Below, in pieces: positions 35,336 to 50,944 of a stretch of 64,000 nucleotides of DNA (position 1 is its first letter; every line of letters starts with the position of its first letter). The DNA is from Candidatus Hydrogenedentota bacterium (GTDB lineage: Bacteria > Hydrogenedentota > Hydrogenedentia > Hydrogenedentales > SLHB01). The stretch lies in contig JARKSN010000316.1 of the NCBI GenBank assembly GCA_029974275.1, positions 1 to 64,000 of the forward strand, given 5' to 3'. The notes below the pieces were generated by a model, which was not told the origin of the DNA, ran no database searches, and was given only the letters and a program-made list of their open reading frames with translations. The position numbers and the translations under genes are program-made.

Positions 35336-36535
35336 ATGAAGATGCAACGTGGGCGCAAAATTCATTGGACGTGGGCACTAGCCGGGGCCATCCTCGCCCT
35401 GTACGTGACCGGTTGTAGCCCGCAGCCCTCCCCCAAGAACGATGACGACTTCCTCGAGCGCATAAAGAGCGAAACATCGGCGAATCCTTCCATCGCCCAG
35501 GAAGGAGTGGGGGCGTTGCCCCCGGCGGCGGCCAGTCCTTCGAACGCCGCGCCCGCTATCGAATTGAACGCCTCCACCGTCGACCTAGGCGTCGTTCCCA
35601 ACGACAACTACTATGTGACAACCGTCCCCGTATACAATCGCGGCGCAGCGGACCTGGTGATAGGCGATGTGCAGACCACCTGCGCCTGCACGATGGGAAA
35701 AATGAAAGAGGCCACGATCAAGCCCGGTTCCCAAGGCGAACTGGAGATCACCATCGTTCCCTACAAAATCCCCGGATTTTCCTCGCAGAAAACCCTGATT
35801 ATTCTCTCAAACGATCCCAAGCACCCCCGTCTGAGCTTGGAAGTGCATTGCAAAGTCGATCCCGAATTCGAAGTCGAGCCAAGTGAAATCGTGTGGGGAA
35901 AAATCCAAAAAGGCGAACGTGCGGAATCCATTCTCCATTTCCGCGCCCTTCAAAACGTCAAAATCGCAGGACAGCCGGACCAGCCCGTCACCGTGGGCGG
36001 AGTCACCGCCATTGGACAGCCCCGCGGTTTGTCGTCCGAGATCGAACCACTTCCCGAAGACGCGTGGACCGCTCCGGGCCTGCCGGAATACCGGATACGC
36101 CTTATGCTGGATACGACCGAACTGCCGTTGGGCGCCTACGCGGCGTCCTTTCAAATCGTCACCTCCGCGCCGCGCGTGCCGCGTTTCATGAGCGGCGTCA
36201 AGGCCGAAATCGTCTCCTTCTACGCAATCGCCCCCCCCACGATCACCGTTCAGAAAATACAACCCGGGGAGACTATCAAGGACGCCGCCGTCATTTCCTC
36301 GCAAAGCCAAGCGTTCGAGTTGAAGGACGTCGCCGTTGGTGGCGATAGCTTGACCGTTGCGACCCGTCCCGGGCCTTCGCCCAACAGCGTTGCGATCGAT
36401 CTGACCGCGGCGCCAAACGCCCTGGAAGGGCACAAACAGGAAACCATTACATTCACACTGTCGTCAGGCGACGAGACCTTGAAGGACTCCATCCGCGTTT
36501 TCGCGATAGTCTCGAAATCGCCAACGACCCCATAG
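35336..36535 (+). CDS. DUF1573 Ig-like domain lipoprotein
   Basis: VTGC lipobox; NRGAADLVIGDVQTTCACT...IKPG...SNDP. Confidence 0.78.
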   Translation: MKMQRGRKIHWTWALAGAILALYVTGCSPQPSPKNDDDFLERIKSETSANPSIAQEGVGALPPAAASPSNAAPAIELNASTVDLGVVPNDNYYVTTVPVYNRGAADLVIGDVQTTCACTMGKMKEATIKPGSQGELEITIVPYKIPGFSSQKTLIILSNDPKHPRLSLEVHCKVDPEFEVEPSEIVWGKIQKGERAESILHFRALQNVKIAGQPDQPVTVGGVTAIGQPRGLSSEIEPLPEDAWTAPGLPEYRIRLMLDTTELPLGAYAASFQIVTSAPRVPRFMSGVKAEIVSFYAIAPPTITVQKIQPGETIKDAAVISSQSQAFELKDVAVGGDSLTVATRPGPSPNSVAIDLTAAPNALEGHKQETITFTLSSGDETLKDSIRVFAIVSKSPTTP

Positions 36536-36576
36536 CCGTTATCTCAGCCAACGCACAATCGCAGGAGATCCACGCC

Positions 36577-36960
36577 ATGGCCTTGTTCGGACGGCGAGAC
36601 AAAGATGCCGCGAAGACCGCTGCGCCGGCAGGTCTGCGCCCCACAATGGGCCGGATCGCCTACTGCCGCGTCTGCGCCAAGGACCAACCGATGACCCGCT
36701 GTTGGATGCGCACCGCCTATCTTGTCCAGTGCATGTGCTGCGGCCTCGCCTTCGAGGACCCTGCCGCGTTGTATCGCCGCAATCAGCCGGCTTGTCCCCG
36801 TTGCGGCGAATTCCTGGAACACCCCGGTTTTGAATACGGACTGTGCGACGGGTGTGGATCGAAGTACGAGCTCGTGAGCGGCGCCAAGCCCGGCCTGCTG
36901 CCCAATAAGCGCCAGCGCGATGAAATGAGCAAACAAGGGAAAGCTTGGAGCAGATACTGA
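36577..36960 (+). CDS. Small multi-CxxC (zinc-ribbon) protein
   Basis: CRVC, CMCC, CPRC and CDGC; AGGAG upstream; ends 1 nt before the next ATG. Confidence 0.75.
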   Translation: MALFGRRDKDAAKTAAPAGLRPTMGRIAYCRVCAKDQPMTRCWMRTAYLVQCMCCGLAFEDPAALYRRNQPACPRCGEFLEHPGFEYGLCDGCGSKYELVSGAKPGLLPNKRQRDEMSKQGKAWSRY

Positions 36961-36961
36961 C

Positions 36962-38410
36962 ATGCTGACGAACGAAATCAGGGATCGCCTTCAACGGCAC
37001 GGGCAAGAGCGAGTGCTTCGGTTCTGGGACCGCCTTGACGACGAGGCCTGCGGGACGCTGGGCGCGCAGCTGGCGACCATAGATTTTGAACTTATGGATC
37101 GGCTCATCGAGAAATGGATTCGCAACACGCCGTCCGCGGAAAGATTCAACGCCATCGATCCGGTGCCGCTGATTCCCGAGGCCGATCTTTCGCGACCGGA
37201 CGCCCGCGAGGCCTGCGCCGCTGGCGAAGACGCCCTGCGCCAGGGACGCGTAGGGTTGATCCTCGTTGCCGGCGGACAAGGAACCCGTCTGGGTTTTAGC
37301 GGCCCCAAAGGTTCTTACCCCATTGGCCCCATTTCCGGGCGCAGTCTCTTCGCGTATCATGCGGAGAAGATACGCAATCTGCAACGCCGGTATGCCTGCA
37401 CGCTGCCATGGTACATCATGGTTAGCGCCGCCAACCGCGCCGCCACCGAGGCTTTTTTCCGCGAACACGACTATTTCGGCTTGCGCGTCCAAGACATCCG
37501 CTTTTTCCAGCAACGCATGATCCCGTGCGTCGACGACAATGGCGCCTTCATGCTCGACGCTCCCGGGCGGCTTGCCATGAACCCCAATGGCCACGGAGGC
37601 TGCATTCCCGCGATGGTCGAGAGCGGAATTACGAAAGACGCCCGGGAACGCGGCGTTGACACGCTCAGCTATTTCCAAGTCGACAACTGGGCGGCCAAGG
37701 TCGCCGATCCATTTTTCATCGGCTACCATGTCCTTCGCGGCGGCGAAATGTCCTCGAAGATCAACCGTCGCAACGGACCCCGCGAAGCCGTCGGCGTCCA
37801 CTGCCTATGCGACGGCGAATACCGCGTCATCGAATACTCCGAACTCGATATCTATCCGCAACTCTTGGAACTCGATGCTCATGGGAAGCCGGTCTACCTT
37901 GCCGGCAATCCCGCGATTCACATCCTTTCCGTGCCGTTTATCGAACGGGTATCTCACAATTTCCGCGAATTCCCGTGGCACTTGGCGCATAAAAAGATCG
38001 CCTGCATCGATGACGCCGGCGTGCGCATTGTCCCGGACAAGCCCAACGGCTACAAGTTCGAGACCTTTGTGTTCGACGCCCTCCGCTTCATTCGCCACGA
38101 GCCAATCGCATTGCTGATTCGCCGTGACGGCGAGTACACCCCCACGAAACAGTTCGAAGGAGACAACAGCGTTACGGCTGCGCGCGCGAGCATGGCCCGC
38201 TTCTGGGGCGAATGGCTCGACGAGGCCGGCGTCGCGACGCCGCGCGACGGACAGGGCAACGTCGCCGTGGACATCGAGATCAGTCCCGACTTCGCTTATT
38301 CGAAAGAGGAATTCATGGATCGCATGAAAGGCTGCACTCTGGACATCAACGGCGGCATTTCCATTTCCGCCGACGGTTCCATCGAATACGCCGACAACAG
38401 GCGCGCGTGA
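36962..38410 (+). CDS. UDPGP-family (eukaryote-like UAP) UTP-sugar-1-phosphate uridylyltransferase, probably UDP-GlcNAc pyrophosphorylase
   Basis: LVAGGQGTRLGFSGPKG, PNGHGG, QVDN, VIEYSE, AHKKI, NGYKFETFVFD. Confidence 0.9.
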   Translation: MLTNEIRDRLQRHGQERVLRFWDRLDDEACGTLGAQLATIDFELMDRLIEKWIRNTPSAERFNAIDPVPLIPEADLSRPDAREACAAGEDALRQGRVGLILVAGGQGTRLGFSGPKGSYPIGPISGRSLFAYHAEKIRNLQRRYACTLPWYIMVSAANRAATEAFFREHDYFGLRVQDIRFFQQRMIPCVDDNGAFMLDAPGRLAMNPNGHGGCIPAMVESGITKDARERGVDTLSYFQVDNWAAKVADPFFIGYHVLRGGEMSSKINRRNGPREAVGVHCLCDGEYRVIEYSELDIYPQLLELDAHGKPVYLAGNPAIHILSVPFIERVSHNFREFPWHLAHKKIACIDDAGVRIVPDKPNGYKFETFVFDALRFIRHEPIALLIRRDGEYTPTKQFEGDNSVTAARASMARFWGEWLDEAGVATPRDGQGNVAVDIEISPDFAYSKEEFMDRMKGCTLDINGGISISADGSIEYADNRRA

Positions 38411-38413
38411 CGG

Positions 38414-41400
38414 CTACGGAGAGGAGACGCGACGGGGACGCTTGCGATCCGAGACAGCCTTGAACAATCCTTCGGAACGCGTGCAGACCCATGTGCACGA
38501 AAATGCCGCATCTCCCAAAATGTCCGCCACGTCCCTCAATGGCTTCCGGCCAAGACGCCACGCATCGTTGCTGACCGCATACATGGAATCCCCCTTTCCT
38601 CGGAGAAGTCCGTCCGCTTCCACCCGAAGAATCCCGCCGTCCGGAGCGGGCGTCTGAAACGACCACGGTTGTTTGCCGAAGCAGAGATCGATGACGGCAT
38701 GGCCGACTTCACATCGAAACGAGGTTGCCTCCATCGCCGAGGTTCTCGCCCAGATCGCGGGCCGGCCATCGACATCGTCAAAAACGCGTACTCGCTCCAC
38801 GCCCCGGATCCTGTTTTTCTCGTCGCCGATCACGAGCCGCGCATCCCGCAACGCCTGTTTACCATCCTCGTGCCACGGCAACAGGAGGATGCCGCCCAAA
38901 GAACCCACGGCTACGTATTCCAAAGCAGGAAGCATGGCTGCCGAAGTCAACACATCAAACGCCATCGCGCGACAATTTCCGATGTCGATCAGCGCCGCAT
39001 AATCCGCTGGGGATGCCGTGAACGGCGCGGACGCGAGATCGCTCCAGGCATACCGAGGCTCCGACGACCATGCCAAGGCCGGAGCTCGCAACACGACCGT
39101 ATCTCCAACGCGAAAGGCGTTCCCCGTGGTTTGGGCATCGATCTCTTCCCAAGCCAGGGGGCCGTCTTTCCACGAACTCCGATGAAACCGCCACGAAACC
39201 GTTTCGCCGGTCCCCTCCCTCTGAGCAGTGAAAAAACTTCCGAGCTCCGCTTCCCGGATGCGGTCGATGCGCCGAGGGCAGGGTTTGATGTCGCGAAGAA
39301 CGAGACGATTCTCCTCGATTGCATTCAAACACAGGAAGGAAGAACCGCCATTTTCGGGGTTTTGACTGTGGGTCGCGAGAAGCCACAGTTTCTCCTTTCC
39401 CGGAAAGGATTCCAGCGCGCATCCTGCGTCGGCAGCATCGAACACGAAGCGACCATCCGCCAGCAGGCGATCGTCGGAGATATCCGGAATTCGAGAACGG
39501 AGCAGAGGGGCATTCTTCGAAAGCAGGTCGCGCGGAATCCAGCTTTGGGTTAGTTCGAGGCGGCGTTTTCCCAACATGCCGTCGTCCTGAAACGCAACCA
39601 TCAGATGCGCCACGCTGCGCAACGACGGAGACGCGTCGATGCGTTCCAATCGCCACGGCCCTTCCATGCAAGAGACATGATACTGAGGGAATTCGGCGTC
39701 GCCGCCCACAACCACTCCCGTGCGCTTCCCATTTGCGCGGGCGACATCGCACCGTGTTTGCCCGCGCAACACGGTCAGCGTCATGGGATATTGGCCTGCC
39801 TGAGCAAGATCAACCCGCGCCAGCCCTGCCTGCGTCACCAGGACTCCGGTCCTGTTGTCGTCGAGCAATCCGATGGCATGCGTTATGTCCCACGCAAACC
39901 GATCCTCATGCCACCAATCCGGGATCGGAAGCGGTTGCGCGCCGGTTTCCTCTGCTTCCACGCACGGCGTGAGAGACATGTCCGTTTTCGAGATGGGACG
40001 CCACACGATGTTTCCGACCTGTCCCTCGACTTGCGGCGTTTCCAGTTTTTCGCTCTGCCACGAAGCATCCGCAGCGGCGGAAGTCTGAAATGTCCATAGC
40101 CGATGCTTTTCGCGCGCCGTCAGACGCAGCGCCGCCCCCCCGATTAAGCTCGGAACGCAATCCGAAGGCATGTCCGAAGGCGGCGCGAAGCACGCCATGA
40201 TCGTTGCAGGGGATCTCGGATCGCGTTTCACGACGCATCGGCCAGGAACGAACACGTACAAACCTTCATTGAAGGAAGCGAACGATGCCCCGCGATCGAA
40301 AAAGAACCTGCTGCCGTCAAACACGGATTTTCCGTCGAAGGCGCGAAACGACACCTTGCCTTCGCGACATGCGATCCGCAATGCGGGGGTGCTTATCTCC
40401 GATTCCGGATCGTGGGAGAGGGGCGTTTCGGATTTGTCCACTCGTTGGAACGGTCTTGCTTGCAGTCTCCAGAATCCATCTTCCGTTTCCAACGTAATAG
40501 GCCCATCCGAAACGTCGCGGCGCAGCCATGTAACGAGGTCATCTCGGAATTTCCAATTTCCAGCCGTTGTCTGCCGCCAGGAACGCGTCCGGTTCGCTTC
40601 ATCAAGACGGACGATCCGCAGTTCCGTTTCCATGCCGGGACGTCGGGTCAAGCGCCACTGCCAGCCGCCGTTCTCCACGACGCTGGTTTGCGCGAGGGCA
40701 TCCGGACCGGTCAGCAGGGTCAGTTGGCCATCTTGCCACAAGGCAACGAACCGGCTATTCATTTCTATGGCAACGCGCGCTGGACCTTCCAGACGAACCA
40801 GCGATCCGTTGCGGAATCGCTCATCAACAACCTGTAACCGGAACGAGTCGGCATCGCGAACCGTCAGCCCCAGATCGGTTATCAACACAAGAGAACCGTC
40901 CGAGAGGATTTCCATATCCTTCGTGCACAAGAACGAAAACGTATCCCCCGACGAAGCCCAGACGGGCCTTTCGGCGCGCGACGCATCGCTCCATGCAATA
41001 TCGAGTCCATTTTCGGGACCCGCCCGGAAATCCAGTTGTTCTCCTGCGACATCGACTCTGGCCGCCGTCTTCGTCGAAAGCGTTTCCTCAAACCGCAACG
41101 TCCCTTCGGACGCTTCCTCCACGAGGCGCGTTGTCCGGTCCGCAAACGTAAGCTGGATTCTGTCGTAGGAAAACCATTGCGCCGACACCAGGTCCTTGCC
41201 AAGCACGCGTTCTCGCCGGGTTTCCTCCAGCTCCGTCGAGTTTTTCCCCGGCATCAAGACCGCCAACTCACCTCGTTGAACCGTATATACATTGCCCGAT
41301 GGCCCCAGCGCGGCGCCGTCGTAGACATCTTCCTCGAACCCTCCAGGCTTGGCGTGAAGGGAGCGCCATGCGCCATGCGCGTTTCGCCAGCAGTGCGTTA

Positions 41401-44400
41401 CGCCCTCCTCGCGAGAGACCTTGAAAACCTCCGTCTCGAGCAAGAGCCCGTCGCCCGGACGGACCATCGAAACGCCCCCCTTTTCCAGCATTTCGGCCAG
41501 CATGGCCCCAGAGACAGGCAATCGCGAGACAACCGCCCCGGAATCCGCCTGCACCGAGACAATGCCGGTTTGAGATTCGCGCTCGATGACGCCATAGGTC
41601 TGGTCTTTGGCGCGAAACCATCCATAAAACGTGTATCCGGGAATGGGGGAAAGGAGACGTCGCAACCTGCCCTCAGCCGGATCGTACTGGGCCACGCTTC
41701 CCTGAATGTCTATGAAATAAACCTTGCCGTTGGAGCATTGCGCATATACGGTTTCTCGCGGATCGAATCCTGCCTCATCGAGCGCGCCGCCGCGCGCGTA
41801 TTCGACGCAGGGAGCTGCAATGTCGCGCCATTCCATCATCGACAAGCGCCCGTCGGCGACGAACGCCATTCGGACCACGCCCCGATCATCCACCCGAATG
41901 CCGCCCTGGCGCACGTTCTCGGGGATGGATGTCACCAAGCGTTGATGAAGGTCTTTTCCGACGAAAAGGACATCCCGATCGTCTGCAATGACCATTCCCG
42001 AGGAACTCGAAGCGCAGTGCTGCGGCGTCTGCTTCAGTTCGAGCGGCATTTCGCGCCAAGTGCCGCATGCGTGATCATAAACGCCCAGCGATGGATCGGG
42101 ACCTACGAACACGACGCTGGAATCGTCTCGTTGCCAAGCGAAGATGGCTTTTTCCACGAGACGCCGCATGCCGCGGGCAGACCCAAAGCTATCCGCCTTC
42201 CATTGTGCGGAGGTTTTCCCTGAAATCGGCGTCCAACGGACCAGAGAACCCTCGGCGTTGAGCGCCCAAACCCGCTGACCAGGAGCCTTTGAACCGGCCA
42301 GTTGCACCGCTGCCTTGCGCCCTCCAGGAATCTCGCGCCATGCGTTGTCGTATTGGTGGAACAACCGCCCGTCTTGCAGCCGGGCGAACACGATACCGGC
42401 GGCAGAGCATAAATCTGTCACCGGCGAGGGGGAAGAGCCGGATACGATTCCAAGCTGCGCATATGTCGCCGTATCGTTGTGGTAGGCGATCACGTGGCCG
42501 CCAGGGCCCGATGCAAGCATCGCGTTTTCGCCTGACGGCGCGATGGCGGTCGCACGACTCGGTTCGAAAGGAAAACCGCCCTTCCCAAATACGCCAGTGG
42601 AAATTCGGTCCGACACAAGACGCAGACAGCCGTCCTTGTATAGATAGACAAGGTCTTCGCCGGTCAAGCGAATCTGTTTCACCGTTTCCGGGCTGTCAGG
42701 GGAAGCGATCCAGCCGCGATCTTCGCCCATGTCGCCCGTATTCGAGGCATATTGGATGCACCGATCGCCCTTAAGAAAGGCCACCCGCCACCACTCCGAC
42801 TTGCTTTCTCCGTCGCCCCGCACGTAAAGGCACGCATCCCCCAGAAACGAGGAAGAGGAGGCGGCGTCGGCGCCTAGGGTCGGCGCATGCCCTGTGCAAA
42901 AACGCCTAGGAAACCCGGTTTTTGGATAATCGTATCGGTAAATCTCGCCATTTTCCCCTAACCCCAAGAACACGCCATGGCACGAGACGACATGTTTGGC
43001 AGGACACTGGTTAAACGGGTCCAACGCTCGCCAGTGGCTTTGCCGTTTTGGGTCGTATGCATAGCAATACGCCGCGCCGTTGCTATCCACCGCCAAGACC
43101 CCGTCGGGAAGGGCTTCCAATGCCCTGAATCCGCTTGCCCGCCGCCGCTCGTCAATCGTTCTATTTCCCTCCTGTCCGTGCCACAACGCCATGGATGCAT
43201 CCTGATACCCGTGCGTATGGGCGTCATACAAAAACGTCCCGCGGTTCGTCGCGAAAAGCATCCCTTCGTCGACGGTTTTGATGCTCCGGACCTCCAGCGC
43301 GCCGACAGCGCCCTCGGGCTTCCAGCCGTTTCCGGACCTGATCGTCTCGTGTTGGCCTTGCGCCATGGGAGCCCTGGCCAGCCGAACCTCAAGCGCGGAT
43401 CCGCCGGATGTGGCCTGATAGAGACATAGCCCGCCGTCGGGGCTTACCGCCGCCGGCCCTGTGGCGTTCGCGTCGAGAACGACTACGTTTTTCGATAGGT
43501 CCTGATTTTCGGAAGCGTTTACAAGCAGCAATCCGGCATCCGTAGCCACCAGCGCTGCGCTCCCGTGCGACCCAGGAACCGTATCGATGGACGATATATT
43601 CGGACATGTCGCCACTCCGATGAGCCGGCGTTCTGTCGCATCGTAACGGAACAACGCGTTGGCCGTAGCCATCCACGTGGCGCTTTCATCTTGAGCCACC
43701 CGCGTGATGCTTGTCACGGCGTCGAGCTTCGGCGCTGTTTCGGGCTGATGCGTGAAATAGGGCCCCGCCCATCCCGCATCGGGATCGAAGAGCCAAGTGG
43801 AACCGTGCGAGTCTTGCGCCCATGCACTGTGTCCTTCATACGGGGCGTCGAGCTGGACAGCGGCCTGGGTATGCAGTTCGCCGCGATCCAGAAAATTCAG
43901 CGTTTGGCGATCTGCGCAACGGACGCCTCCTTCCCGAAGCGTAAGCCAGACGCGATCGCGCGTCAGGCCGACATCCGCCATGTCAACCGCCGAGGCCTGG
44001 CCTGTTTGCCAGGAACGGTCTCGTTGCAATGTCCCATCCGAAAGAGGACTAAAGGTGTAGCGCGCCACGCCCGCGCCTCGAAGCGCCACTAGCCATCCCG
44101 ACGCATCGAACGCATTGCCTTGCACCTCCGCCTCCACGCTGCCGACAGAGGCGTGATGGCGCCAGTAGGGATTTTCAGGCGCCCCCAGCCACGAATTCAT
44201 CGCTATCCCGCTTTTTCCATGCGTCGCATGGGACCGCTCGATAGCCTGTCCCGACGTCAAGACGAGAAACTCATCCGGTCCTTTGCCATTTGTGACGTCG
44301 AGCGTTGGATTTGGGATATGACGCTGCCGGACAAGACGGCTTTGCTTGTGGAGGATTGTCAGACCGTCCGATGTTCCCAGCGCCAGCCAATTTCCGTTTG

Positions 44401-45139
44401 ACGCCATGGACGTGAATACCGTGCGCGTGTAATCCCAGAAGGGGCGTACGTCGCGCACATGGTCAAGGGTGTTCCAGGGAAACATCCACGGCAGCCTGGG
44501 GTTCACGGCAAACACCGACATCGCCGCACCCGAAAACAGGCATGCAGTCAGGAGCCCCCCCAGCGCCCAGACCGATATCGCTCGACGAGCGTAATCGTAG
44601 GGAAAGCTCGATATCTTGTAAGCGTTTGGTCGCAGTGAGGTTTCGGATGCTCCATGCTGCCGCGCGAAGTCTTCCGCCAAAGCATCGACGAAGCGAATCC
44701 GCCCCAGAATTCCTTCCTGCCACTCGCGCGGAACTCGCCGCCGCCACGCGCCCAGCAAACGGCGCAGTGTATTCAGGGCCAGCGCTTGCATCACATCGTT
44801 CGTCTCATGCGACGGAAGTGTCGGCGGAATGGAGAAATCCGCATCCTCGGCGAGGTCTTCCAAAAAACATCTCCAGACATCCCAGCGGACCTCAGTCGAG
44901 AAATCCTCTGTAAGCGCCAGCCACATGGTCGCGCACGAACTTCCCAGCCGCGCCGCCAGTTCCGTCGGTTGCAGGGCGCGCACCAGATGAAACTGGTTGT
45001 GTATCGCGCGAACCGCCATTGTTTCAGGCTGGTTCTCGTGGTGCAGTAAAAGGTGCAGAAAACGTGCGTACGACTCACCGTTTCTGATGGATTCAGGGCC
45101 CACCGGGTAAAGAACTCCGCGGCGAGTTTGACGACGCAA
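38414..45139 (-). CDS. Giant single-pass membrane protein with extracytoplasmic beta-propeller-like repeats; 5' end uncertain (ATG 45019, or originally fused to the CHAT ORF)
   Basis: 2241-codon open frame; one hydrophobic segment (AISVWALGGLLTACLFSGAAMSVFAV, about 44504-44580); blade-like motifs WLALGTSDGL, WMATANALFRYD, LFATNRGTFLYD, LITDLGL, VAVGSLGGI. Confidence 0.75.
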   Translation of the reverse strand: MRRQTRRGVLYPVGPESIRNGESYARFLHLLLHHENQPETMAVRAIHNQFHLVRALQPTELAARLGSSCATMWLALTEDFSTEVRWDVWRCFLEDLAEDADFSIPPTLPSHETNDVMQALALNTLRRLLGAWRRRVPREWQEGILGRIRFVDALAEDFARQHGASETSLRPNAYKISSFPYDYARRAISVWALGGLLTACLFSGAAMSVFAVNPRLPWMFPWNTLDHVRDVRPFWDYTRTVFTSMASNGNWLALGTSDGLTILHKQSRLVRQRHIPNPTLDVTNGKGPDEFLVLTSGQAIERSHATHGKSGIAMNSWLGAPENPYWRHHASVGSVEAEVQGNAFDASGWLVALRGAGVARYTFSPLSDGTLQRDRSWQTGQASAVDMADVGLTRDRVWLTLREGGVRCADRQTLNFLDRGELHTQAAVQLDAPYEGHSAWAQDSHGSTWLFDPDAGWAGPYFTHQPETAPKLDAVTSITRVAQDESATWMATANALFRYDATERRLIGVATCPNISSIDTVPGSHGSAALVATDAGLLLVNASENQDLSKNVVVLDANATGPAAVSPDGGLCLYQATSGGSALEVRLARAPMAQGQHETIRSGNGWKPEGAVGALEVRSIKTVDEGMLFATNRGTFLYDAHTHGYQDASMALWHGQEGNRTIDERRRASGFRALEALPDGVLAVDSNGAAYCYAYDPKRQSHWRALDPFNQCPAKHVVSCHGVFLGLGENGEIYRYDYPKTGFPRRFCTGHAPTLGADAASSSSFLGDACLYVRGDGESKSEWWRVAFLKGDRCIQYASNTGDMGEDRGWIASPDSPETVKQIRLTGEDLVYLYKDGCLRLVSDRISTGVFGKGGFPFEPSRATAIAPSGENAMLASGPGGHVIAYHNDTATYAQLGIVSGSSPSPVTDLCSAAGIVFARLQDGRLFHQYDNAWREIPGGRKAAVQLAGSKAPGQRVWALNAEGSLVRWTPISGKTSAQWKADSFGSARGMRRLVEKAIFAWQRDDSSVVFVGPDPSLGVYDHACGTWREMPLELKQTPQHCASSSSGMVIADDRDVLFVGKDLHQRLVTSIPENVRQGGIRVDDRGVVRMAFVADGRLSMMEWRDIAAPCVEYARGGALDEAGFDPRETVYAQCSNGKVYFIDIQGSVAQYDPAEGRLRRLLSPIPGYTFYGWFRAKDQTYGVIERESQTGIVSVQADSGAVVSRLPVSGAMLAEMLEKGGVSMVRPGDGLLLETEVFKVSREEGVTHCWRNAHGAWRSLHAKPGGFEEDVYDGAALGPSGNVYTVQRGELAVLMPGKNSTELEETRRERVLGKDLVSAQWFSYDRIQLTFADRTTRLVEEASEGTLRFEETLSTKTAARVDVAGEQLDFRAGPENGLDIAWSDASRAERPVWASSGDTFSFLCTKDMEILSDGSLVLITDLGLTVRDADSFRLQVVDERFRNGSLVRLEGPARVAIEMNSRFVALWQDGQLTLLTGPDALAQTSVVENGGWQWRLTRRPGMETELRIVRLDEANRTRSWRQTTAGNWKFRDDLVTWLRRDVSDGPITLETEDGFWRLQARPFQRVDKSETPLSHDPESEISTPALRIACREGKVSFRAFDGKSVFDGSRFFFDRGASFASFNEGLYVFVPGRCVVKRDPRSPATIMACFAPPSDMPSDCVPSLIGGAALRLTAREKHRLWTFQTSAAADASWQSEKLETPQVEGQVGNIVWRPISKTDMSLTPCVEAEETGAQPLPIPDWWHEDRFAWDITHAIGLLDDNRTGVLVTQAGLARVDLAQAGQYPMTLTVLRGQTRCDVARANGKRTGVVVGGDAEFPQYHVSCMEGPWRLERIDASPSLRSVAHLMVAFQDDGMLGKRRLELTQSWIPRDLLSKNAPLLRSRIPDISDDRLLADGRFVFDAADAGCALESFPGKEKLWLLATHSQNPENGGSSFLCLNAIEENRLVLRDIKPCPRRIDRIREAELGSFFTAQREGTGETVSWRFHRSSWKDGPLAWEEIDAQTTGNAFRVGDTVVLRAPALAWSSEPRYAWSDLASAPFTASPADYAALIDIGNCRAMAFDVLTSAAMLPALEYVAVGSLGGILLLPWHEDGKQALRDARLVIGDEKNRIRGVERVRVFDDVDGRPAIWARTSAMEATSFRCEVGHAVIDLCFGKQPWSFQTPAPDGGILRVEADGLLRGKGDSMYAVSNDAWRLGRKPLRDVADILGDAAFSCTWVCTRSEGLFKAVSDRKRPRRVSSP

Positions 45140-46134
45140 TGGATAGCGAGCGGCGGATCCTGGGAATCAAGCGCCGGCGTCTGGGCCTGATGCATCCCCA
45201 GCCGGATGTCGATGCTGGCGCCGACGAAAAAACGAACCCCGGCGTCGAGGAAGGCATGCGGATATGAGAGCCCCTGCTCTTCGCGGCCTGATGGGTCACG
45301 TCCCGCGCTGTAGCAACAGCACGCGTACACCAGTTCCGGGACGATGCGTCTTTGGTTGGGTGCGGTGGATGATGTCTGGTCTGCGCGCAGAAAACGCCGG
45401 AGATCGGAAATCGACAGCACGTGTCCCGGGTGCAACAGCCAACCTCTTCCCTTGTCCGACGGGTCGGACAAATGACCCAAGAAAAAAACGGCGCGATGCT
45501 TGCGAAATATCTCGATCAAGAGGTCGAAGCGCCCCGCATCGTCGCCTTTGAGCCGTTGAAATTCCTCGCCGCTGAAGGTGTCCACAATCAAGTAAGGTTG
45601 CAACTGCCTCTGGAGCGATTTGGCCTGAGACTCGAACAATTCGTTTCCGTCCCCTGTCGCGTAGAGAATGGCAAGAGTTCTTTCGGGCGGCCGGTCGACA
45701 GGCGGACACGCCAAGTGGTCTATGATCCGGTAGACAGGGCCTAGGGTGTCGAGCCATTTCTCGCCTGCGGGGAGCAGTTCTGGCAGCAGCTCACAGGATT
45801 GATAGGTGAGGATCAGCGTCAATGGAAGAGGCGGCGTGGAGGACTGCATGGCTTGGGTCACCAGATCGAAGCCCTTTTCCCATCCGATAAAACTAAGCAA
45901 ATCGGCGCCTGCCGCCACAGGATACGGTCGTAGCGGATCGTCGAGAGCCTCCTTCATGGATGCGTGCATTCGCCCGATCGCGCCGTGCAGGAGAGAATCC
46001 CAACGCTTTCCGGGATCAACGATGGGGTGCGATAGGGGAGCCGATGTCTTGTCCGCCGCTGAAAAGATAACCAGAAGGGGGGATTGCCCTTCTTCGGGAT
46101 AATGAAGCGAGAATGTTGCGGATGCCTCGTTCAT
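44791..46134 (-). CDS. CHAT-domain (caspase-like, clan CD) protease, apparently truncated or frameshifted near 45075
   Basis: LTLIL...LLPELL...VYR (LPWE-like), AVFFLGH (catalytic His, codon 45474-45472), LVYACCCYSA (catalytic Cys, about 45315), AFLDAGVRFFVG, LAAEFF. Confidence 0.75.
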   Translation of the reverse strand: MNEASATFSLHYPEEGQSPLLVIFSAADKTSAPLSHPIVDPGKRWDSLLHGAIGRMHASMKEALDDPLRPYPVAAGADLLSFIGWEKGFDLVTQAMQSSTPPLPLTLILTYQSCELLPELLPAGEKWLDTLGPVYRIIDHLACPPVDRPPERTLAILYATGDGNELFESQAKSLQRQLQPYLIVDTFSGEEFQRLKGDDAGRFDLLIEIFRKHRAVFFLGHLSDPSDKGRGWLLHPGHVLSISDLRRFLRADQTSSTAPNQRRIVPELVYACCCYSAGRDPSGREEQGLSYPHAFLDAGVRFFVGASIDIRLGMHQAQTPALDSQDPPLAIHCVVKLAAEFFTRWALNPSETVSRTHVFCTFYCTTRTSLKQWRFARYTTSFIWCAPCNRRNWRRGWEVRARPCGWRLQRISRLRSAGMSGDVFWKTSPRMRISPFRRHFRRMRRTM

Positions 46135-47054
46135 GCGGGGGTGTTCTCGCCAGCGTCCGGCGCTGTGCCCGCCACTACGGGCAATTCGATCGTCACCTCG
46201 CGCAACTCGCCCGAACGGGTCGCACCGGATAGAAATAGACGCAACGGTTCGGTCGTCGGCGGTGCAATCCGGAAATCGATCCCTCCTTCCCTGCGCAGGT
46301 CTCGAGCGCCCGTGGCAGGACGCTCGGAAGTTCCCAGCGCCACCGAGAGGGGAAACGAGGTTTCCCCGACGAGGTCACAATGGCATACCCAATAGACGGC
46401 CTCTCCGTCCTTGAGATATTCCTCCCGCAGAGTGATCCGGATCGTCACGCCAAAATCCTGGACGGGTGCATCCAGAAGAATTCGGTCCGGATACTCCGTC
46501 AAAGCAGGCACAGGTTGAATCCCCGTGCAGGTCCAGATGCCTACGCGCAGTCCTGGCTCAAACGCGGTTTCCAGCATTCGGATCCCGGCATGCGCGGCCT
46601 CCGATACGTGTTCCGCAAGCCGCCACTTCTTGCCACGCAACACCAGCATTTGAGACGGGAAGGCGCCGACGCACGAGTGGGCGAAGTCCAGCCATTCGCG
46701 GCGTTGCTGGTTCATGTCGAGCAGGAGTGCCTTGGTCGCTTCTGGGAAAGGCTCGATGCCTTGGGTATGCGTTGCAACCGGTTGCTCGGTTTCCTCCTTC
46801 CAAAATTCAAGCGCGGCAAGGATGCTGTCAAGACCGGCTTGCGCGACATGGGGATCTGTTTCAAGATTCTTGATCACGGTAAGAAAACGGTCGAATTCAT
46901 CGGCGGCCCGTTTCCGGAAAAAAGACACGGCCTCCCGAATATCCGCTTCGGGCACGTTTTCTCCCGCAAGATAGTCAAGAATCATGTTTCGAGCCCTCTG
47001 TGCCGCGTCAATATCAGCTTGAGCGGGCACGATAGGCCGACTATTGGAATCCAT
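46131..47054 (-). CDS. Hypothetical soluble protein, putative anti-sigma factor
   Basis: AGGAG RBS; 8 nt after the sigma gene and ATGA-coupled to the CHAT gene. The N-terminal helix ILDYLAGE..PEADIREAV resembles an anti-sigma domain lacking HxxxCxxC; beta-rich C-terminus; no TM segment. Confidence 0.55.
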   Translation of the reverse strand: MDSNSRPIVPAQADIDAAQRARNMILDYLAGENVPEADIREAVSFFRKRAADEFDRFLTVIKNLETDPHVAQAGLDSILAALEFWKEETEQPVATHTQGIEPFPEATKALLLDMNQQRREWLDFAHSCVGAFPSQMLVLRGKKWRLAEHVSEAAHAGIRMLETAFEPGLRVGIWTCTGIQPVPALTEYPDRILLDAPVQDFGVTIRITLREEYLKDGEAVYWVCHCDLVGETSFPLSVALGTSERPATGARDLRREGGIDFRIAPPTTEPLRLFLSGATRSGELREVTIELPVVAGTAPDAGENTPA

Positions 47055-47062
47055 GTTGTCTC

Positions 47063-48724
47063 CTATTTCATCTGTTTGAGAAGCTTGAGCAGGTGATCAC
47101 GCTCGTCACCCAAGGCGGGATTCAGGGTGTCCGCGGTGTTCTCAGAACTCCTTTTCCGCTCTTGATGCAGGTACCAGCCCGGGGAAACGAAAAAGTCAAT
47201 GCGCCAATCAGGCATCTTTGCTTGCGTGTGGACACGCGTTAGTTTTTGGTCGCATTGATCCGCGCGGAACCGTTCCAGGGCCTCGCACAAGCGGGCCTTG
47301 TCGCGCGGCTCGGTGTTTGGGCTGATCAGCCCTGCCGATCGGGCCGAATCGAGCATTGCGCGCACGCGCTGACATGCTTTCTCCGGCTCAAGCTTCGTGT
47401 CAACGAGCACGCGAGCGAGAAATGCCCAAGCCAGAGTCTCTTCGTCACGCGCGGCCCTGCCCAACGCGGCCAGATGGCGCAGTGTGGGAAGGTCCGTCTT
47501 GTCCCATCCGGTTTCTTGGGCGACTTTTTCCAGCACGGCCATATCGCCTGGAGGCTCTGGAGATGTCGCCCTGAGGCCAGCGACCAGAGCCGTCATGCGT
47601 TGCCGCAGTCTGCGCCGCGGCGTGTAAAGGTCTGATGGGCTGATGGTTATATTAGGCGCTGATTCCAATTCGCGCTCCATTTCCTCGTCGGAGATGTCCC
47701 CGTTTTTCCACATATGCAAGACAAGATCTTTCCAGATAACTTTCACTCGGCTCTGCGCCTTGACCTGGAAAAAGGTTTCCACCAACTGGTAGCGCTCGCG
47801 AATCATCGTCAGGCGCTCCATATCGTCTTCCGGCTCCGGCGCGGGAGGAGCAGAGGGCGGCTGGGGCGTGTTGCAGTTGCTGCGAAGGATGTTTTCCGCC
47901 ACGGCGGCAATCCAATGGGGCAACGGCCCTGCGTATCGGTAGCCCCCGTCGGGATCCTCCCAGTGTTCGAGCACCCGCAGGACGGCTTCCGAGACGGCAG
48001 CATCCGCGGTCCATTCTCCGGCTCCGCATGACCATCGCGCTTGGAGAGTCTTCGATATTTTCCCGAGTAAGCTTGCTAACTCCTGTTCGGCCTTCTGGAT
48101 AGACATCGTTTGGCATGTCCTGGTAGCCAGAAAACGAACAACGGGATACCAAGTGAGGAGGTTGTCCGCGATTTGTTCGATCTGAGGTTGAGCGTAGGTA
48201 GCGATGAGGGAAGGGCGGAACTTGCGACGGATATATTCCCGAAGTTCCGGAATCAATGCGGGTGGAGCAGAGGCAAGAACAAGCTGATCGAAACGGCGAA
48301 GAAGTTTTTCGTCGGGGACGCCGCGATTGTTCCAAAACGCCCGCACCCGATCCATGAACGATCTTGGATTGTGTTGCAGCGTTCCCAAGCGGGTGGGCGC
48401 AATGTCCTTCTTAAACGCGTCGGCCATCGCAACGCACTCATTGTAGTGAGAGTCATTCTGGACGAGTTCTTCAAGTGCGAGGCCGGCATTCGCGGCAAGC
48501 GCTTCGATCAGCTCCAGCAGCGGAATGTTTTGTCTGGCGCAGTTTTCGATGGCTCTAGGCGATGGCGTCGAGGAAGACAGGCGGGTCTGGGGGGCGGAGA
48601 GTTCTGTGGCGACTATTTTGGCAAGCAAGGTCGCGTCAAGCTGCGTTCCCAGGACCTTCTCACATATTTTATGAATATCATTGCAATGCGGCGCGTCAGA
48701 CAAAGCAGGACTTTCTTGTTCCAT
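47063..48724 (-). CDS. Divergent ECF-like sigma-70 factor with long N- and C-terminal extensions
   Basis: Region-2-like ADAAVSEAVLRVLEH...YRYAGPLPHWIAAVAENILRS, a Pro-rich linker, and region-4-like ISDEEMERELE...ISPSDLYTPRRRLRQRM. Confidence 0.62.
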   Translation of the reverse strand: MEQESPALSDAPHCNDIHKICEKVLGTQLDATLLAKIVATELSAPQTRLSSSTPSPRAIENCARQNIPLLELIEALAANAGLALEELVQNDSHYNECVAMADAFKKDIAPTRLGTLQHNPRSFMDRVRAFWNNRGVPDEKLLRRFDQLVLASAPPALIPELREYIRRKFRPSLIATYAQPQIEQIADNLLTWYPVVRFLATRTCQTMSIQKAEQELASLLGKISKTLQARWSCGAGEWTADAAVSEAVLRVLEHWEDPDGGYRYAGPLPHWIAAVAENILRSNCNTPQPPSAPPAPEPEDDMERLTMIRERYQLVETFFQVKAQSRVKVIWKDLVLHMWKNGDISDEEMERELESAPNITISPSDLYTPRRRLRQRMTALVAGLRATSPEPPGDMAVLEKVAQETGWDKTDLPTLRHLAALGRAARDEETLAWAFLARVLVDTKLEPEKACQRVRAMLDSARSAGLISPNTEPRDKARLCEALERFRADQCDQKLTRVHTQAKMPDWRIDFFVSPGWYLHQERKRSSENTADTLNPALGDERDHLLKLLKQMK

Positions 48725-48933
48725 GAATTTTCCAATGCAGATATATGAATAAAACCAATGATATGGGGTCCCCCAAAGAAGAATACATATCCCAAACTAC
48801 GATGCTAGCATACGCTTCTGTTCAGGATCAATGGTGGTGGAACGCTCAGGACCATTGCCCGAGGTTTGACCCCACCGAAAAGCGCGATCGTGAGGCAGGC
48901 TTGAACGAAGGGAAAGGGGGAATGAGGGCAATC

Positions 48934-49911
48934 TCAAACCGTGACGACGGCGCCCGCGCGGGCGGATTCGTACAAGGCGTCAATGACCCGCATGTTGGCG
49001 ATGGCGTCTTCTATGCTCCATCGGAGCGGATCGCGCGTGCGGCAAGCGCGCACGAAGTCTTCGATTTCAAGCGCATAGGAATTGGCCGCCGGCACGTTGA
49101 CCACTTCCTCGCGATCGCCCCGGCGCAATAGAAACGTGGCGCGCTCGTTGCCGGGAAGCCACGGCGAGGGAATGAGGATCGAGCCGTCGGCGCCTTCAAT
49201 CTCGGCGGTCTCTCTCGCGTATGACTCGATGCCGCATTCGAGGTGCGCGAGGATGTTGTTGGGGAACTCCAGGATGCCGAGCATCAGATCGTCGACGCTG
49301 GTGCGGCGTTCGAATGCGGCTACGCGGATAGGTTCTGCGCCGGCGACAAGCCGCGACAGGTTCACGCAGTAACAACCGACGTCCATGAGCGAGCCGCCAG
49401 CCAGTGCGGCGTCGGCGATAATGCTGTCCCGGCTGTGCATCCGGAATGAAAACGCGCTGCGGATCGTCGTAATAACGCCGAGGGCGCCATCCTGTATCAG
49501 GCCGAAGATGCGGTCGTACTGCGGGTGATAACGGTACATGAACGCTTCGCCGAGGGGCAGGCGCTTTTGCGCCGCCACGTCGGCGACCCGGCGGGCTTCG
49601 GCGGCGTTGGCCGCGAAAGGCTTCTCGCACAAAACCGGCAGTCCCGCCTCGAGGGCCTTGATGGTCCACTCCGCGTGCAAGCTATTCGGCAACGGATTAT
49701 ACACGCAGTCAATCTCGGCGGAGTCGAGCATCTCCTGGTACGATCCGAATACCCGCGGAATGCCTTGCTCCTTTGCCCATTCAAGGGCGCGCGTGTATTC
49801 GCGACTCGCCACGGCTTGCACGCGGGTGTCGTAGCATTCGGCCATGGCCTTGATGAAGGTGCGCGCGATCTTCGCCGTGCCCAGAATGCCCCACCGGACT
49901 TCGTTCATCAT
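48934..49911 (-). CDS. Gfo/Idh/MocA family oxidoreductase
   Basis: VRWGILGTAKIA, YNPLPNSLHAEW, LCEKPF, EAFMYRYHPQ, GGSLMDVGCY. Confidence 0.92.
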   Translation of the reverse strand: MMNEVRWGILGTAKIARTFIKAMAECYDTRVQAVASREYTRALEWAKEQGIPRVFGSYQEMLDSAEIDCVYNPLPNSLHAEWTIKALEAGLPVLCEKPFAANAAEARRVADVAAQKRLPLGEAFMYRYHPQYDRIFGLIQDGALGVITTIRSAFSFRMHSRDSIIADAALAGGSLMDVGCYCVNLSRLVAGAEPIRVAAFERRTSVDDLMLGILEFPNNILAHLECGIESYARETAEIEGADGSILIPSPWLPGNERATFLLRRGDREEVVNVPAANSYALEIEDFVRACRTRDPLRWSIEDAIANMRVIDALYESARAGAVVTV

Positions 49912-50158
49912 GCTACGCCTCCCCGTGCGCCGGCCGCGCCGCGATTTTGGGTTCATGCCCAAGCGTCAAGCGAGTATACATAAGAGCGGGGGGCGCAACA
50001 AAAAGAAGCATTGGCCGCCAATCGCCCCGATGGAATGGCAGCGACTCCCATCGCTCCACGACGGCACGTGATTTTCTTCGAGCGATTGTGGGAAGACGCG
50101 GGGAACGTATGCTAGACTTTTCCCCTGCGGCGCAAAGGTCGTGACGCGGGAGGATGCC

Positions 50159-50944
50159 ATGCCGGAATATATCGGGACGCACATGGATGCGGGATGTTTG
50201 TGGATGACGCTGCAGCGCCCCAAGGTGAATGCGCTCAACGTGGAACTTCTGCGGGAAATTCGGGAGACGGTTCAGGCTGCCGAAGCCGATGCGGCGATTC
50301 GGTGCATGGTCATTCATGGCGGCGCAGGGAAATTTTTCAGCGGCGGCGCGGATATCCCATCGATCCAGGACGCGCTGGGGAGCGATCCGTTCGCGAAAGG
50401 CGCGTTGCTTTCAGAGGGACAGCAGACGATGAATGTCATCGAAGGCTGCGGCAAGCCTGTTATCGCGGCGGTGAATGGCGCGGCCCTAGGCGGAGGATGC
50501 GAGTTGGCGTTGGCGTGCCATCTGCGCCTTGCTTCGACGGAGGCGACGTTTGGCCAGCCCGAAATCAATCTCGGCATCATGCCGGGCTGGGGCGCAACGT
50601 ACCGGCTCGCGAGGCAGATCGGTCATGCGAGGGCATTGGATTGGATGCTGACGGGCCGTATGGTCGACGCGCAAGAGGCCTACGAGGCGGGCCTGCTCTG
50701 TAAACTCGTGAAGGCCGAGGAACTGGAGGCGGCCGCGCAAGAGCTTGCGGGCACGGTGAGCCGAAAGTCGCCGCTGGCAATGCGGGCGATTCTGGAAACC
50801 GTCCAAAATCAGGCCTTGCATCCTGCCGATGCCAGCGAGCTGGAGACTCGCGGGTTTCAACGATGCATGGCAAGCCACGATGCCGTTGAAGGCGTTTCGG
50901 CCTTTCTGGATAAGCGGACGCCGCATTTTACGGGAGAATCATGA
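50159..50944 (+). CDS. Enoyl-CoA hydratase/isomerase (crotonase family)
   Basis: FFSGGADI, KPVIAAVNGAALGGGCELALACH, FGQPEINLGIMPGWG. Confidence 0.93.
   Translation: MPEYIGTHMDAGCLWMTLQRPKVNALNVELLREIRETVQAAEADAAIRCMVIHGGAGKFFSGGADIPSIQDALGSDPFAKGALLSEGQQTMNVIEGCGKPVIAAVNGAALGGGCELALACHLRLASTEATFGQPEINLGIMPGWGATYRLARQIGHARALDWMLTGRMVDAQEAYEAGLLCKLVKAEELEAAAQELAGTVSRKSPLAMRAILETVQNQALHPADASELETRGFQRCMASHDAVEGVSAFLDKRTPHFTGES

Follow-up and report, generated by a model that had tools for sequence, protein, structure and literature searches.

A divergent cassette of sigma-like, anti-sigma-like and CHAT protease-like proteins, apparently cut short by a deletion, in a Hydrogenedentota genome

Release of a sigma factor by a protease is known for Craspase and has been proposed for DdvA and for extracytoplasmic function (ECF) sigma groups with CHAT protease neighbours. 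Can such a switch also be encoded independently of CRISPR, and if so, what would activate it? The question is raised by four consecutive minus-strand genes in a 64,000-nt stretch of DNA from Candidatus Hydrogenedentota bacterium (positions 1 to 64,000 of contig JARKSN010000316.1 in assembly GCA_029974275.1, which comprises 4.38 Mb in 342 contigs), here called the window. The first-pass annotation, made from the sequence alone, had read these genes as one signalling system, in which a giant membrane sensor activates a caspase-like CHAT protease and the protease frees a sigma factor from its anti-sigma. Our verdict is that the locus is a rare, undescribed and deeply divergent variant of the sigma/anti-sigma/CHAT theme, cut short in this genome. 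Taken as a whole, truncation included, it is best explained as a rare, horizontally scattered signalling cassette, a reading to which we give a little better than an even chance.

The four open reading frames (ORFs) are real. ORF1 (47063-48724, minus strand) encodes a 553-aa, divergent ECF-type sigma-like protein (P0001) and ORF2 (46131-47054, minus) a 307-aa, soluble anti-sigma-like protein (P0002). ORF3 (44791-46134, minus) is an open frame of 447 aa (P0003) beginning with the CHAT domain, and ORF4 (38414-45139, minus) spans 2241 codons from a TTG start and encodes the giant membrane protein (P0004). The close spacing of the first three genes was also described correctly: an 8-nt gap with an AGGAG overlapping the ORF1 stop separates ORF1 from ORF2, and ORF2 overlaps ORF3 by ATGA. 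Hydropathy profiles revealed membrane segments in none of ORF1-ORF3. What did not come true was the expectation that family libraries would recognize the products as Sigma70_r2/r4, CHAT (PF12770) and propellers. Pfam and NCBIfam searches of P0001-P0004 at E<=1 returned no sigma-70, CHAT or propeller model and only chance-level rows, and when P0001, P0003, A1, A2, A5 and A6 were compared with the PDB by sequence and by profile, no meaningful match came up.

The CHAT assignment of ORF3 had been based on two motifs, FFLGH (containing His221) and YACCC (containing Cys274), and it proved right for both the fold and the catalytic pair. An ESM Atlas lead for P0003 residues 1-352 pointed to CHAT clusters (score 0.92). 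At the sequence level, a word-indexed search with P0003 found one relative, P0005 (34% identity), and a two-sequence profile used with HMMER in an exhaustive search of 1.84 billion representatives brought the family to 68 proteins at E<=1e-3. Forty-five of them are at least 1000 aa long with the domain at the N-terminus, and 21 are shorter than 700 aa. The family alignment contains 51 of the 68 members, the 17 others (short fragments, P0022 and P0021) having been left out; in it Gly220 is invariant, while His221 is retained in 48 and Cys274 in 50 of the 51 rows. Using this alignment, AlphaFold produced a model of the P0003 domain with a mean local confidence (pLDDT) of 89.6 and a predicted template modelling score (pTM) of 0.88. 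In the model G220-H221 follow the strand 215-219 and C272-274 follow the strand 268-271.

The caspase-type fold anticipated for 46134-45075 is also what structural comparison returned. Foldseek listed 22 PDB matches at E<=1e-3, with Csx29, human separase and DdvA at the top; the list also contains flavodoxin-fold chains. VIA-align gave the highest score to Csx29 (7zoq_A; Z 16.9, 286 residues aligned, root-mean-square deviation [rmsd] 4.2), followed by separase (Z 16.7, 285 aligned, rmsd 4.7), DdvA (8rot_A; Z 12.9, 249 aligned, rmsd 3.8), gingipain (Z 11.9, 237 aligned, rmsd 4.0) and SAVED-CHAT (Z 10.5, 149 aligned, rmsd 3.0). The flavodoxin-like rows score Z ~9-10 and cover the second lobe only (residues 150-352), whereas those of Csx29 and separase span residues 1-352. 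Judged by the model, residues 1-352 of ORF3 have a separase/Craspase-type CHAT fold with a conserved predicted His/Cys pair. This family is outside Pfam's CHAT model, since PF12770 matched neither P0003 (E<=1) nor any of 14 scanned relatives (E<=0.01).

The sigma-like character of ORF1 emerges at the level of the family. P0001 has two database relatives, at 33% and 25% identity. When the seven-member ORF1 family was compared by hhalign with the 11 ECF sigmas encoded in the same genome, the profiles matched with a probability of 80.8% (E 1.5e-6), the mismatched profile controls reaching 0.1-0.2%. The alignment has 200 columns and runs collinearly through sigma2 and sigma4 along the whole ECF profile (template positions 1-211). 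Accordingly divided, P0001 has a sigma2-like part at about residues 190-290 and a sigma4-like part at about 305-385, together with two extensions: ~190 aa at the N-terminus and a strongly conserved ~170 aa at the C-terminus. Pfam Sigma70_r2 is found weakly in three of the seven relatives (best E 1.1e-4; P0006 reaches 16 bits against a cut-off of 24), and the Pfam region 4 model matched no ORF1 relative. The sigma region 2/4 motifs reported earlier for ORF1 therefore stand as a profile match to ECF sigmas and fall as a Pfam-recognizable sigma domain in P0001 itself. The family-level profile match makes ORF1 a fairly probable, very divergent ECF-type sigma-like protein.

ORF2 presents a similar picture. 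P0002 consists of an N-terminal helical domain of the class-I/zinc-binding anti-sigma (ZAS) type and a Trp-rich conserved C-terminal domain of ~190 aa. The C...HxxxCxxC motif, the CHCC zinc site of ZAS domains, occurs in five of the seven ORF2 family members and is missing from P0002 and from the copy in an Acidimicrobiia metagenome-assembled genome (MAG); zf-HC2 of Pfam matched one of the seven (E 4.3e-5). In hhalign the ORF2 family matched four ZAS domains adjoining ECF sigmas in the same genome at 84.6% (E 6.9e-6, 45 columns; control 0.2%). Of the earlier description, an anti-sigma-like N-terminus with no transmembrane (TM) segment, the topology and the general type are borne out, and the zinc ligands of the relatives are what P0002 does not have. 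Going by these profiles, ORF2 is likely to be the inhibitor of the sigma-like protein.

Do the three proteins belong together? When genomes, one for each species, and JGI metagenomes were scanned with the CHAT-head alignment, ten loci emerged (L003-L012); eight of these (L003-L010) carry the divergent family and two (L011 and L012) are distant matches. The eight come from MAGs of Candidatus Scalindua rubra (L003), an acidimicrobiian (L004) and a member of the Myxococcales (L005), and from metagenomes (L006-L010). According to phmmer and hmmsearch, the gene immediately upstream of the CHAT gene is ORF2-like in six of the seven loci with room for it (L004 and L006-L010), and upstream of the ORF2-like gene there is a sigma-like gene in five of six loci (L004, L007, L008, L009, where it is at the cut end, and L010). 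BLASTP related the window's products to the Acidimicrobiia copies at 27% identity (E 1e-20) and 26% identity (E 2e-11). The order sigma-like, anti-sigma-like, CHAT, which the first-pass annotation had suggested looking for in other genomes, indeed recurs.

Downstream of the CHAT gene, L004, L005 and L010 continue with two AAA genes, the first of ~640 aa and the second of ~590 aa, and between them a gene of unknown kind (490-630 aa); the ORFs downstream in L008 have sizes like those of this set. By this gene order the complete cassette has six genes, of which the window keeps the first two and a half. The family is sporadic across phyla, occurring in an anammox Planctomycetota MAG, in Acidimicrobiia, in Myxococcales and in the phylum of the window, and with these queries it was found neither in 40 relatives nor in 134 other genomes of the phylum.

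The two distant loci show the theme in canonical form. Their CHAT proteins are recognized by Pfam (E 5.8e-22 in L011 and 1.3e-19 in L012). Upstream are, first, an ECF sigma of standard length, with Sigma70_r2 at both loci and Sigma70_r4_2 at L011 alone, and then an ORF of 235-249 aa; downstream is a FadL-like outer-membrane protein. The two loci lie on separate contigs of one metagenome (L011:1168-8061 and L012:75-6865) and have the same gene order, which begins with a 711-739-aa protein and continues with the ECF sigma, the 235-249-aa ORF, the CHAT protein and the FadL/TodX-type protein.

Beside complete cassettes of the divergent family we also noticed a protein with HTH, NB-ARC/STAND and TPR domains (L004:4388-7555, minus strand) and an rve_3 integrase (L005:2033-3142, plus strand), neighbours that hint at a defence island or a mobile context. 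They bear on a different view of the locus, in which the cassette would be mainly an anti-phage or conflict system: the CHAT effector would cut cellular or phage proteins, with the sigma-like and ORF2-like products serving as accessory regulators or as decoy substrates and not as the output. The scattered distribution, with no family member among the 40 relatives and 134 other genomes of the phylum, would suit such a system, as would the generic PADLOC matches of the kinase and AAA parts of the relatives to PD-T4-6, IetA and TRIP13 models. Comparable caspase systems with ECF sigmas have been predicted (PMC8195603). PADLOC, however, has no model that matches P0001-P0004, and the strict retention of the sigma-like/anti-sigma-like pair argues for a transcriptional output. 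We consider the defence view quite improbable.

The CHAT head is usually part of a much larger protein. A typical family member has ~1200 aa and combines the N-terminal CHAT head with a kinase-like domain and an AAA ATPase; in the Pfam scan of 14 relatives, Pkinase and AAA were each found in 10. Hanks kinases have the catalytic motif HRD. At this position the kinase-like domains of P0008, P0009, P0011, P0017, P0025 and P0035 (full-length rows of alignment A4) have HGN in five cases and HGH in one, and the Pfam match covers the C-lobe only; read from these residues, the domain behind the CHAT head may be a pseudokinase. Variation exists as well. P0021 (1607 aa) has an additional Metallophos (calcineurin-like phosphoesterase) domain N-terminal to the CHAT head, and in L008 (9166-12947) the CHAT-kinase-AAA gene is present as two overlapping ORFs of 504 and 791 aa, which may be a frameshift or a split.

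In a quick tree of 58 rows the window's CHAT domain is placed inside the kinase-AAA-bearing family, with SH-aLRT values of 82-91 at the forks. Outside it, across the longest branches, are the canonical CHAT rows from L011 and L012. A kinase-AAA partner was not found elsewhere in the window's genome, where the search gave only generic kinase and AAA matches. The tree position and the missing partner fit, weakly, a loss of the usual C-terminal module.

How such a loss could have come about is seen at the junction of ORF3 and ORF4. In the relatives the motif FFxRW...P..AV is followed at the domain end by xHLYxAKxAC, in longer form xHLYxAKxACxFHLLT.... The window's CHAT domain is without this conserved end motif and without the family's final conserved helices, which close the active site. 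The last 94 residues of ORF3 are rich in Arg, Cys and Trp, and the codon-position GC pattern changes from the ORF3 frame to the ORF4 frame near 45120.

Logan contigs of four sequencing runs were aligned to the locus, X4 and X5 with partial cover. Run X1, possibly the source of the assembly, has one contig over 42605-47711 with zero differences. Run X3, from another study and >99% alike, covers the junction bin with neither an indel nor a loose end. Run X5, also from another study and 95-99% alike, represents a sister strain and departs from the window exactly here: one contig follows 45075-45590 and then continues with 92 unlike letters, and a second follows 44535-45082 and continues with 58 unlike letters. 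Read on the gene strand, the first continuation encodes I-H-L-Y-E-A-K-K-A-C in the ORF3 frame, that is, the domain-end motif of the family, and in the second the ORF4 frame stays open upstream of 45082.

Since both the codon-position GC switch and the X5 junction mark the same place, residues 354-447 of ORF3 (44791-45074, minus) are best taken as non-native, out-of-frame read-through, and residues 1-353 (45076-46134, minus) as the native, in-frame part with the CHAT domain and its His221 and Cys274. The 8 nt at 45075-45082 fit both sides of the extra DNA of the sister strain, and the simplest reading of this 8-nt word is that the window's lineage lost the DNA between two copies of it. On the sequence evidence the window appears to carry a deletion allele, in which the CHAT end is lost and ORF4 is left without its own start. 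The overlap of the ORF3 and ORF4 frames, previously taken for a further sign of coupling, is a deletion junction instead. A simple frameshift, in which the missing CHAT end would be found in residues 41-57 of the giant ORF, was rejected: phmmer with the giant's first 230 aa against the CHAT family gave a best E of 0.11, and the motif was located elsewhere by X5. By eye, there is no slippery heptamer of the kind used in programmed frameshifting in 45075-45139.

The trio stands side by side here and in the same order elsewhere, and the window contains no CRISPR-like repeat; a sigma switch gated by the protease and independent of CRISPR is thus a reasonable interpretation. In such a switch the anti-sigma-like protein would sequester the sigma-like protein until a signal, read by the kinase-like and AAA module behind the CHAT head, activates the protease, perhaps with help from the two further AAA proteins. 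The activated CHAT head would then cut the anti-sigma or one of the two sigma extensions, and the freed sigma would redirect transcription. In the window's lineage a deletion at the 8-nt microhomology 45075-45082 would have removed the CHAT end together with whatever came after it, and would have joined the CHAT stump, out of frame, to a point inside the 5' region of the giant membrane-protein gene. A protease left without the closing helices and the partner module usual in its family probably means a disabled or altered switch in this strain. The giant protein, for its part, probably became a neighbour through the deletion.

A number of observations weigh against this interpretation. P0001 itself matches neither Sigma70_r2 nor Sigma70_r4 of Pfam, and its AlphaFold model is poor (pLDDT 58.9). 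Foldseek found nothing with this low-confidence model. In the wide VIA-align search of P0001, where Z did not exceed 6.5, sigma2 domains make up 16 of the 50 listed rows over residues 188-292 with Z 4.8-6.1, values that for helical proteins do not rise above noise. All four zinc ligands have been lost from P0002, and since Val, Gln, Phe and Ala stand at the aligned places, zinc binding by the CHCC site is impossible. In L005 the ORFs upstream of the CHAT gene have the right sizes (537 and 331 aa) and no detectable similarity to P0001, P0002 or the profiles. None of the forks of the tree, which is a quick one only, is strongly supported, none being starred at its SH-aLRT of 82-91. As to the deletion, the two X5 contigs are separate pieces that may not be adjacent to each other, and the extra X5 DNA could be a short in-frame linker that makes the CHAT domain and the giant one protein, which would favour the first-pass annotation. 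The deletion allele is, moreover, present in X1 and, as far as the cover shows, in X3; its occurrence in a run from another study means that it is tolerated and could be functional.

The first of these points lead to the question of whether ORF1 is a sigma at all. The trio could resemble separase and securin, with ORF2 or ORF1 as a pseudosubstrate inhibitor or scaffold and no link to RNA polymerase. To the lack of a Pfam sigma match in P0001, the weak Sigma70_r2 matches in three of seven relatives and the weak sigma2 fold matches, this view can add that the separase fold match is as good as that to Csx29 and that the extensions, long and conserved, set ORF1 apart from ordinary ECF sigmas. It would have to account, on the other hand, for the collinear profile alignment over sigma2 and sigma4 with its clean controls, for the zinc anti-sigma motif in five of the seven members of the partner family and for the canonical cassettes in which an ECF sigma, a small ORF and a CHAT gene follow in the same order. 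We hold a separase-securin-like trio to be highly doubtful and retain the sigma-like reading of ORF1.

The doubts about the junction concern the giant protein. P0004 starts with ~186 aa of cytoplasmic helical region, crosses the membrane at residues 187-212 (44504-44581) and continues as an ectodomain of ~2030 aa. A single TM segment followed by about 2000 aa of propeller-like repeats had been described: the TM segment is clear in the hydropathy profile, which has a weaker peak at 2068-2087, while for the repeats BLAST revealed no internal repeat (and no paralogue in the genome) and Pfam no domain at E<=1. ESM Atlas leads for P0004 are Reg_prop, LpqB and PorZ propellers with scores of 0.85-0.89, all below 0.9. 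The count of a loose blade-like motif is 21, compared with 11.9 +/- 3.3 in shuffled sequences, of which at least one also reached 21. The propeller repeats are a lead at most. No homologue of similar length (1232-3922 aa) was found.

The gene nevertheless looks genuine, as 12 of the 20 X5 differences listed for 38498-39056 are at third codon positions (40 of the 171 differences are listed), a bias that argues for a real gene under constraint. Contigs of X3 and X5 stop fitting at 39220, 41076, 41308-41339, 43294 and 43921 with loose ends of 31-255 letters, and the ectodomain may hold strain-variable or rearranged segments.

Could all four products, then, form one system after all, as originally proposed, with the giant ectodomain sensing an outside signal, activating CHAT and freeing the sigma? 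In an intact allele of the X5 type, fusion or tight coupling of the CHAT domain to the giant would produce a transmembrane caspase-type receptor. The four ORFs run in the same direction and are coupled at the upstream junctions; in X5 the depth of cover is similar over the whole set (29 of 30 bins), and the giant frame, as noted above, is open upstream of the junction. A precedent exists in DdvA, where CHAT is joined to a membrane anti-sigma (PMC11506125) and which matched our model at Z 12.9, and the CHAT head does carry varied modules, for example the Metallophos domain of P0021.

Opposed to this are the other family members: in none of the 67 other matches does a membrane segment stand right behind the CHAT head, and hydropathy peaks elsewhere in them are few. 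In addition, co-occurrence cannot be shown for a giant without homologues, the junction in the window is out of frame with the conserved domain end gone, and the N-terminal 230 aa of the giant are unlike the CHAT family. A sensor role for the giant protein is thus not upheld, given that it has no relative and that the CHAT heads of other members are fused to a cytoplasmic kinase-like domain and AAA. Only the scarred junction ties P0004 to the cassette, and the adjacency may be accidental. We judge a four-gene system with a giant sensor to be unlikely and keep to the truncated cassette. For this genome, the pairing of protease and giant sensor calls for caution, as it rests on a deletion-scar junction.

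A bolder proposal goes further. The sigma-like, ZAS-like and CHAT-head proteins would constitute a new family of CRISPR-independent, protease-gated switches with variable sensors, and in the sister strain the head would be fused or coupled directly to a surface receptor of ~2000 aa. If this were true, the cassette would comprise, when complete, six genes with three AAA-type ATPases, and a signal from outside the cell would control a protease of the caspase type through the membrane. We regard this proposal as speculative and rather improbable.

How does the cassette relate to the systems already described? The Craspase (CASP) of type III-E CRISPR consists of Cas7-11, the TPR-CHAT protease Csx29, its substrate Csx30 and CASP-sigma (PMC10028731). 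In fold, the window's protease matches Csx29 best, and in both cases the CHAT protease, the sigma inhibitor and the sigma factor are encoded together (PMC10028731). In contrast to Craspase, however, the window has neither Cas7-11 nor a TPR arm, the CHAT domain starts at residue 1, and the sequence identity is 10-12%. Furthermore, the inhibitor is ZAS-like rather than Csx30-like, and in the relatives the activator would be a fused kinase-like and AAA module instead of an RNA-guided complex.

In Myxococcus xanthus the ECF sigma DdvS is paired with DdvA, a transmembrane anti-sigma with a CHCC zinc domain inside and TPR-CHAT in the periplasm, for which proteolytic release of the sigma has been proposed (PMC11506125). 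The CHAT fold, the CHCC zinc anti-sigma domain (in five of the seven ORF2 relatives) and the ECF-type sigma in one module are shared features. DdvA is, however, one membrane protein with CHAT outside, whereas here the proteins are separate and soluble and the CHAT is cytoplasmic; the sigma-like protein is about three times longer, and P0002 has no zinc ligands.

CHAT genes have also been found in a conserved context with ECF54, and proteolytic control of the sigma has been proposed (PMC8999054). The order of sigma, small ORF and CHAT protease is common to this type of context, to L011 and L012 and to the window. In L011 and L012 the sigma (~210 aa) and the CHAT are recognized by Pfam and a FadL-like protein follows, whereas in the window's family all three proteins escape Pfam and the sigma has two long extensions. 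EACC2-caspase systems, with a constant caspase-type domain, variable C-terminal modules and a predicted coupled ECF sigma (PMC8195603), are similar in combining a caspase domain with variable modules and in having, as a possible transcriptional output, an ECF sigma. They were compared by description, and their EACC2, TRADD-N and DUF1822/TPR partners were not seen here.

In the CalpL-CalpT-CalpS system a Lon-SAVED protease, activated by a cyclic nucleotide from type III CRISPR, cuts an anti-sigma and frees an ECF sigma. The concept of protease-gated sigma release is the same and the protease fold is different, Lon instead of CHAT. A cA4-responsive Lon protease is reported to cleave CRISPR-T (PMC10028731). 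A published description of a protein with CHAT, kinase-like and AAA parts together with a sigma/anti-sigma pair was not found in full-text searches of the literature, supplements aside. Current family libraries miss the three proteins of this divergent branch, and a complete locus, such as L010 or L004, offers a tractable place to ask how a CHAT protease is activated without CRISPR and what its substrate is.

Upstream of ORF1, 48725-48830 is an AT-rich candidate promoter region. The AT-richness had been pointed out before, and the GC content of these 106 nt is 0.387 compared to 0.599 window-wide. A sigma-70 consensus scan of the region gave no site, the count being at or below the shuffle expectation, and the upstream regions of five loci (the window and four homologous ones) have no motif or k-mer in common. 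Rfam families were not found within 36000-51000. The setting was rightly seen as CRISPR-independent in so far as CRISPR-like direct repeats (>=22 nt, spaced within 150 nt) are absent from the whole window; no cas gene was found among the 12 flanking ORFs scanned, the scan covering these and not the rest of the genome.

The flanking genes are the ordinary metabolic ones that had been recognized earlier: according to Pfam, a UDP-sugar pyrophosphorylase (UDPGP) is on one side, and the opposite side has a GFO/IDH/MocA oxidoreductase and an enoyl-CoA hydratase; GyrA is also present. The UDPGP gene (36962-38410, plus) is overlapped on the opposite strand by a 420-aa ORF at 36539-37801 (minus) that Pfam does not match and that is probably a shadow ORF. 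At 50941-53400 (plus) there is an 819-aa protein that combines a neutral-ceramidase N-terminal domain with an AAT/Ntn-hydrolase-type domain.

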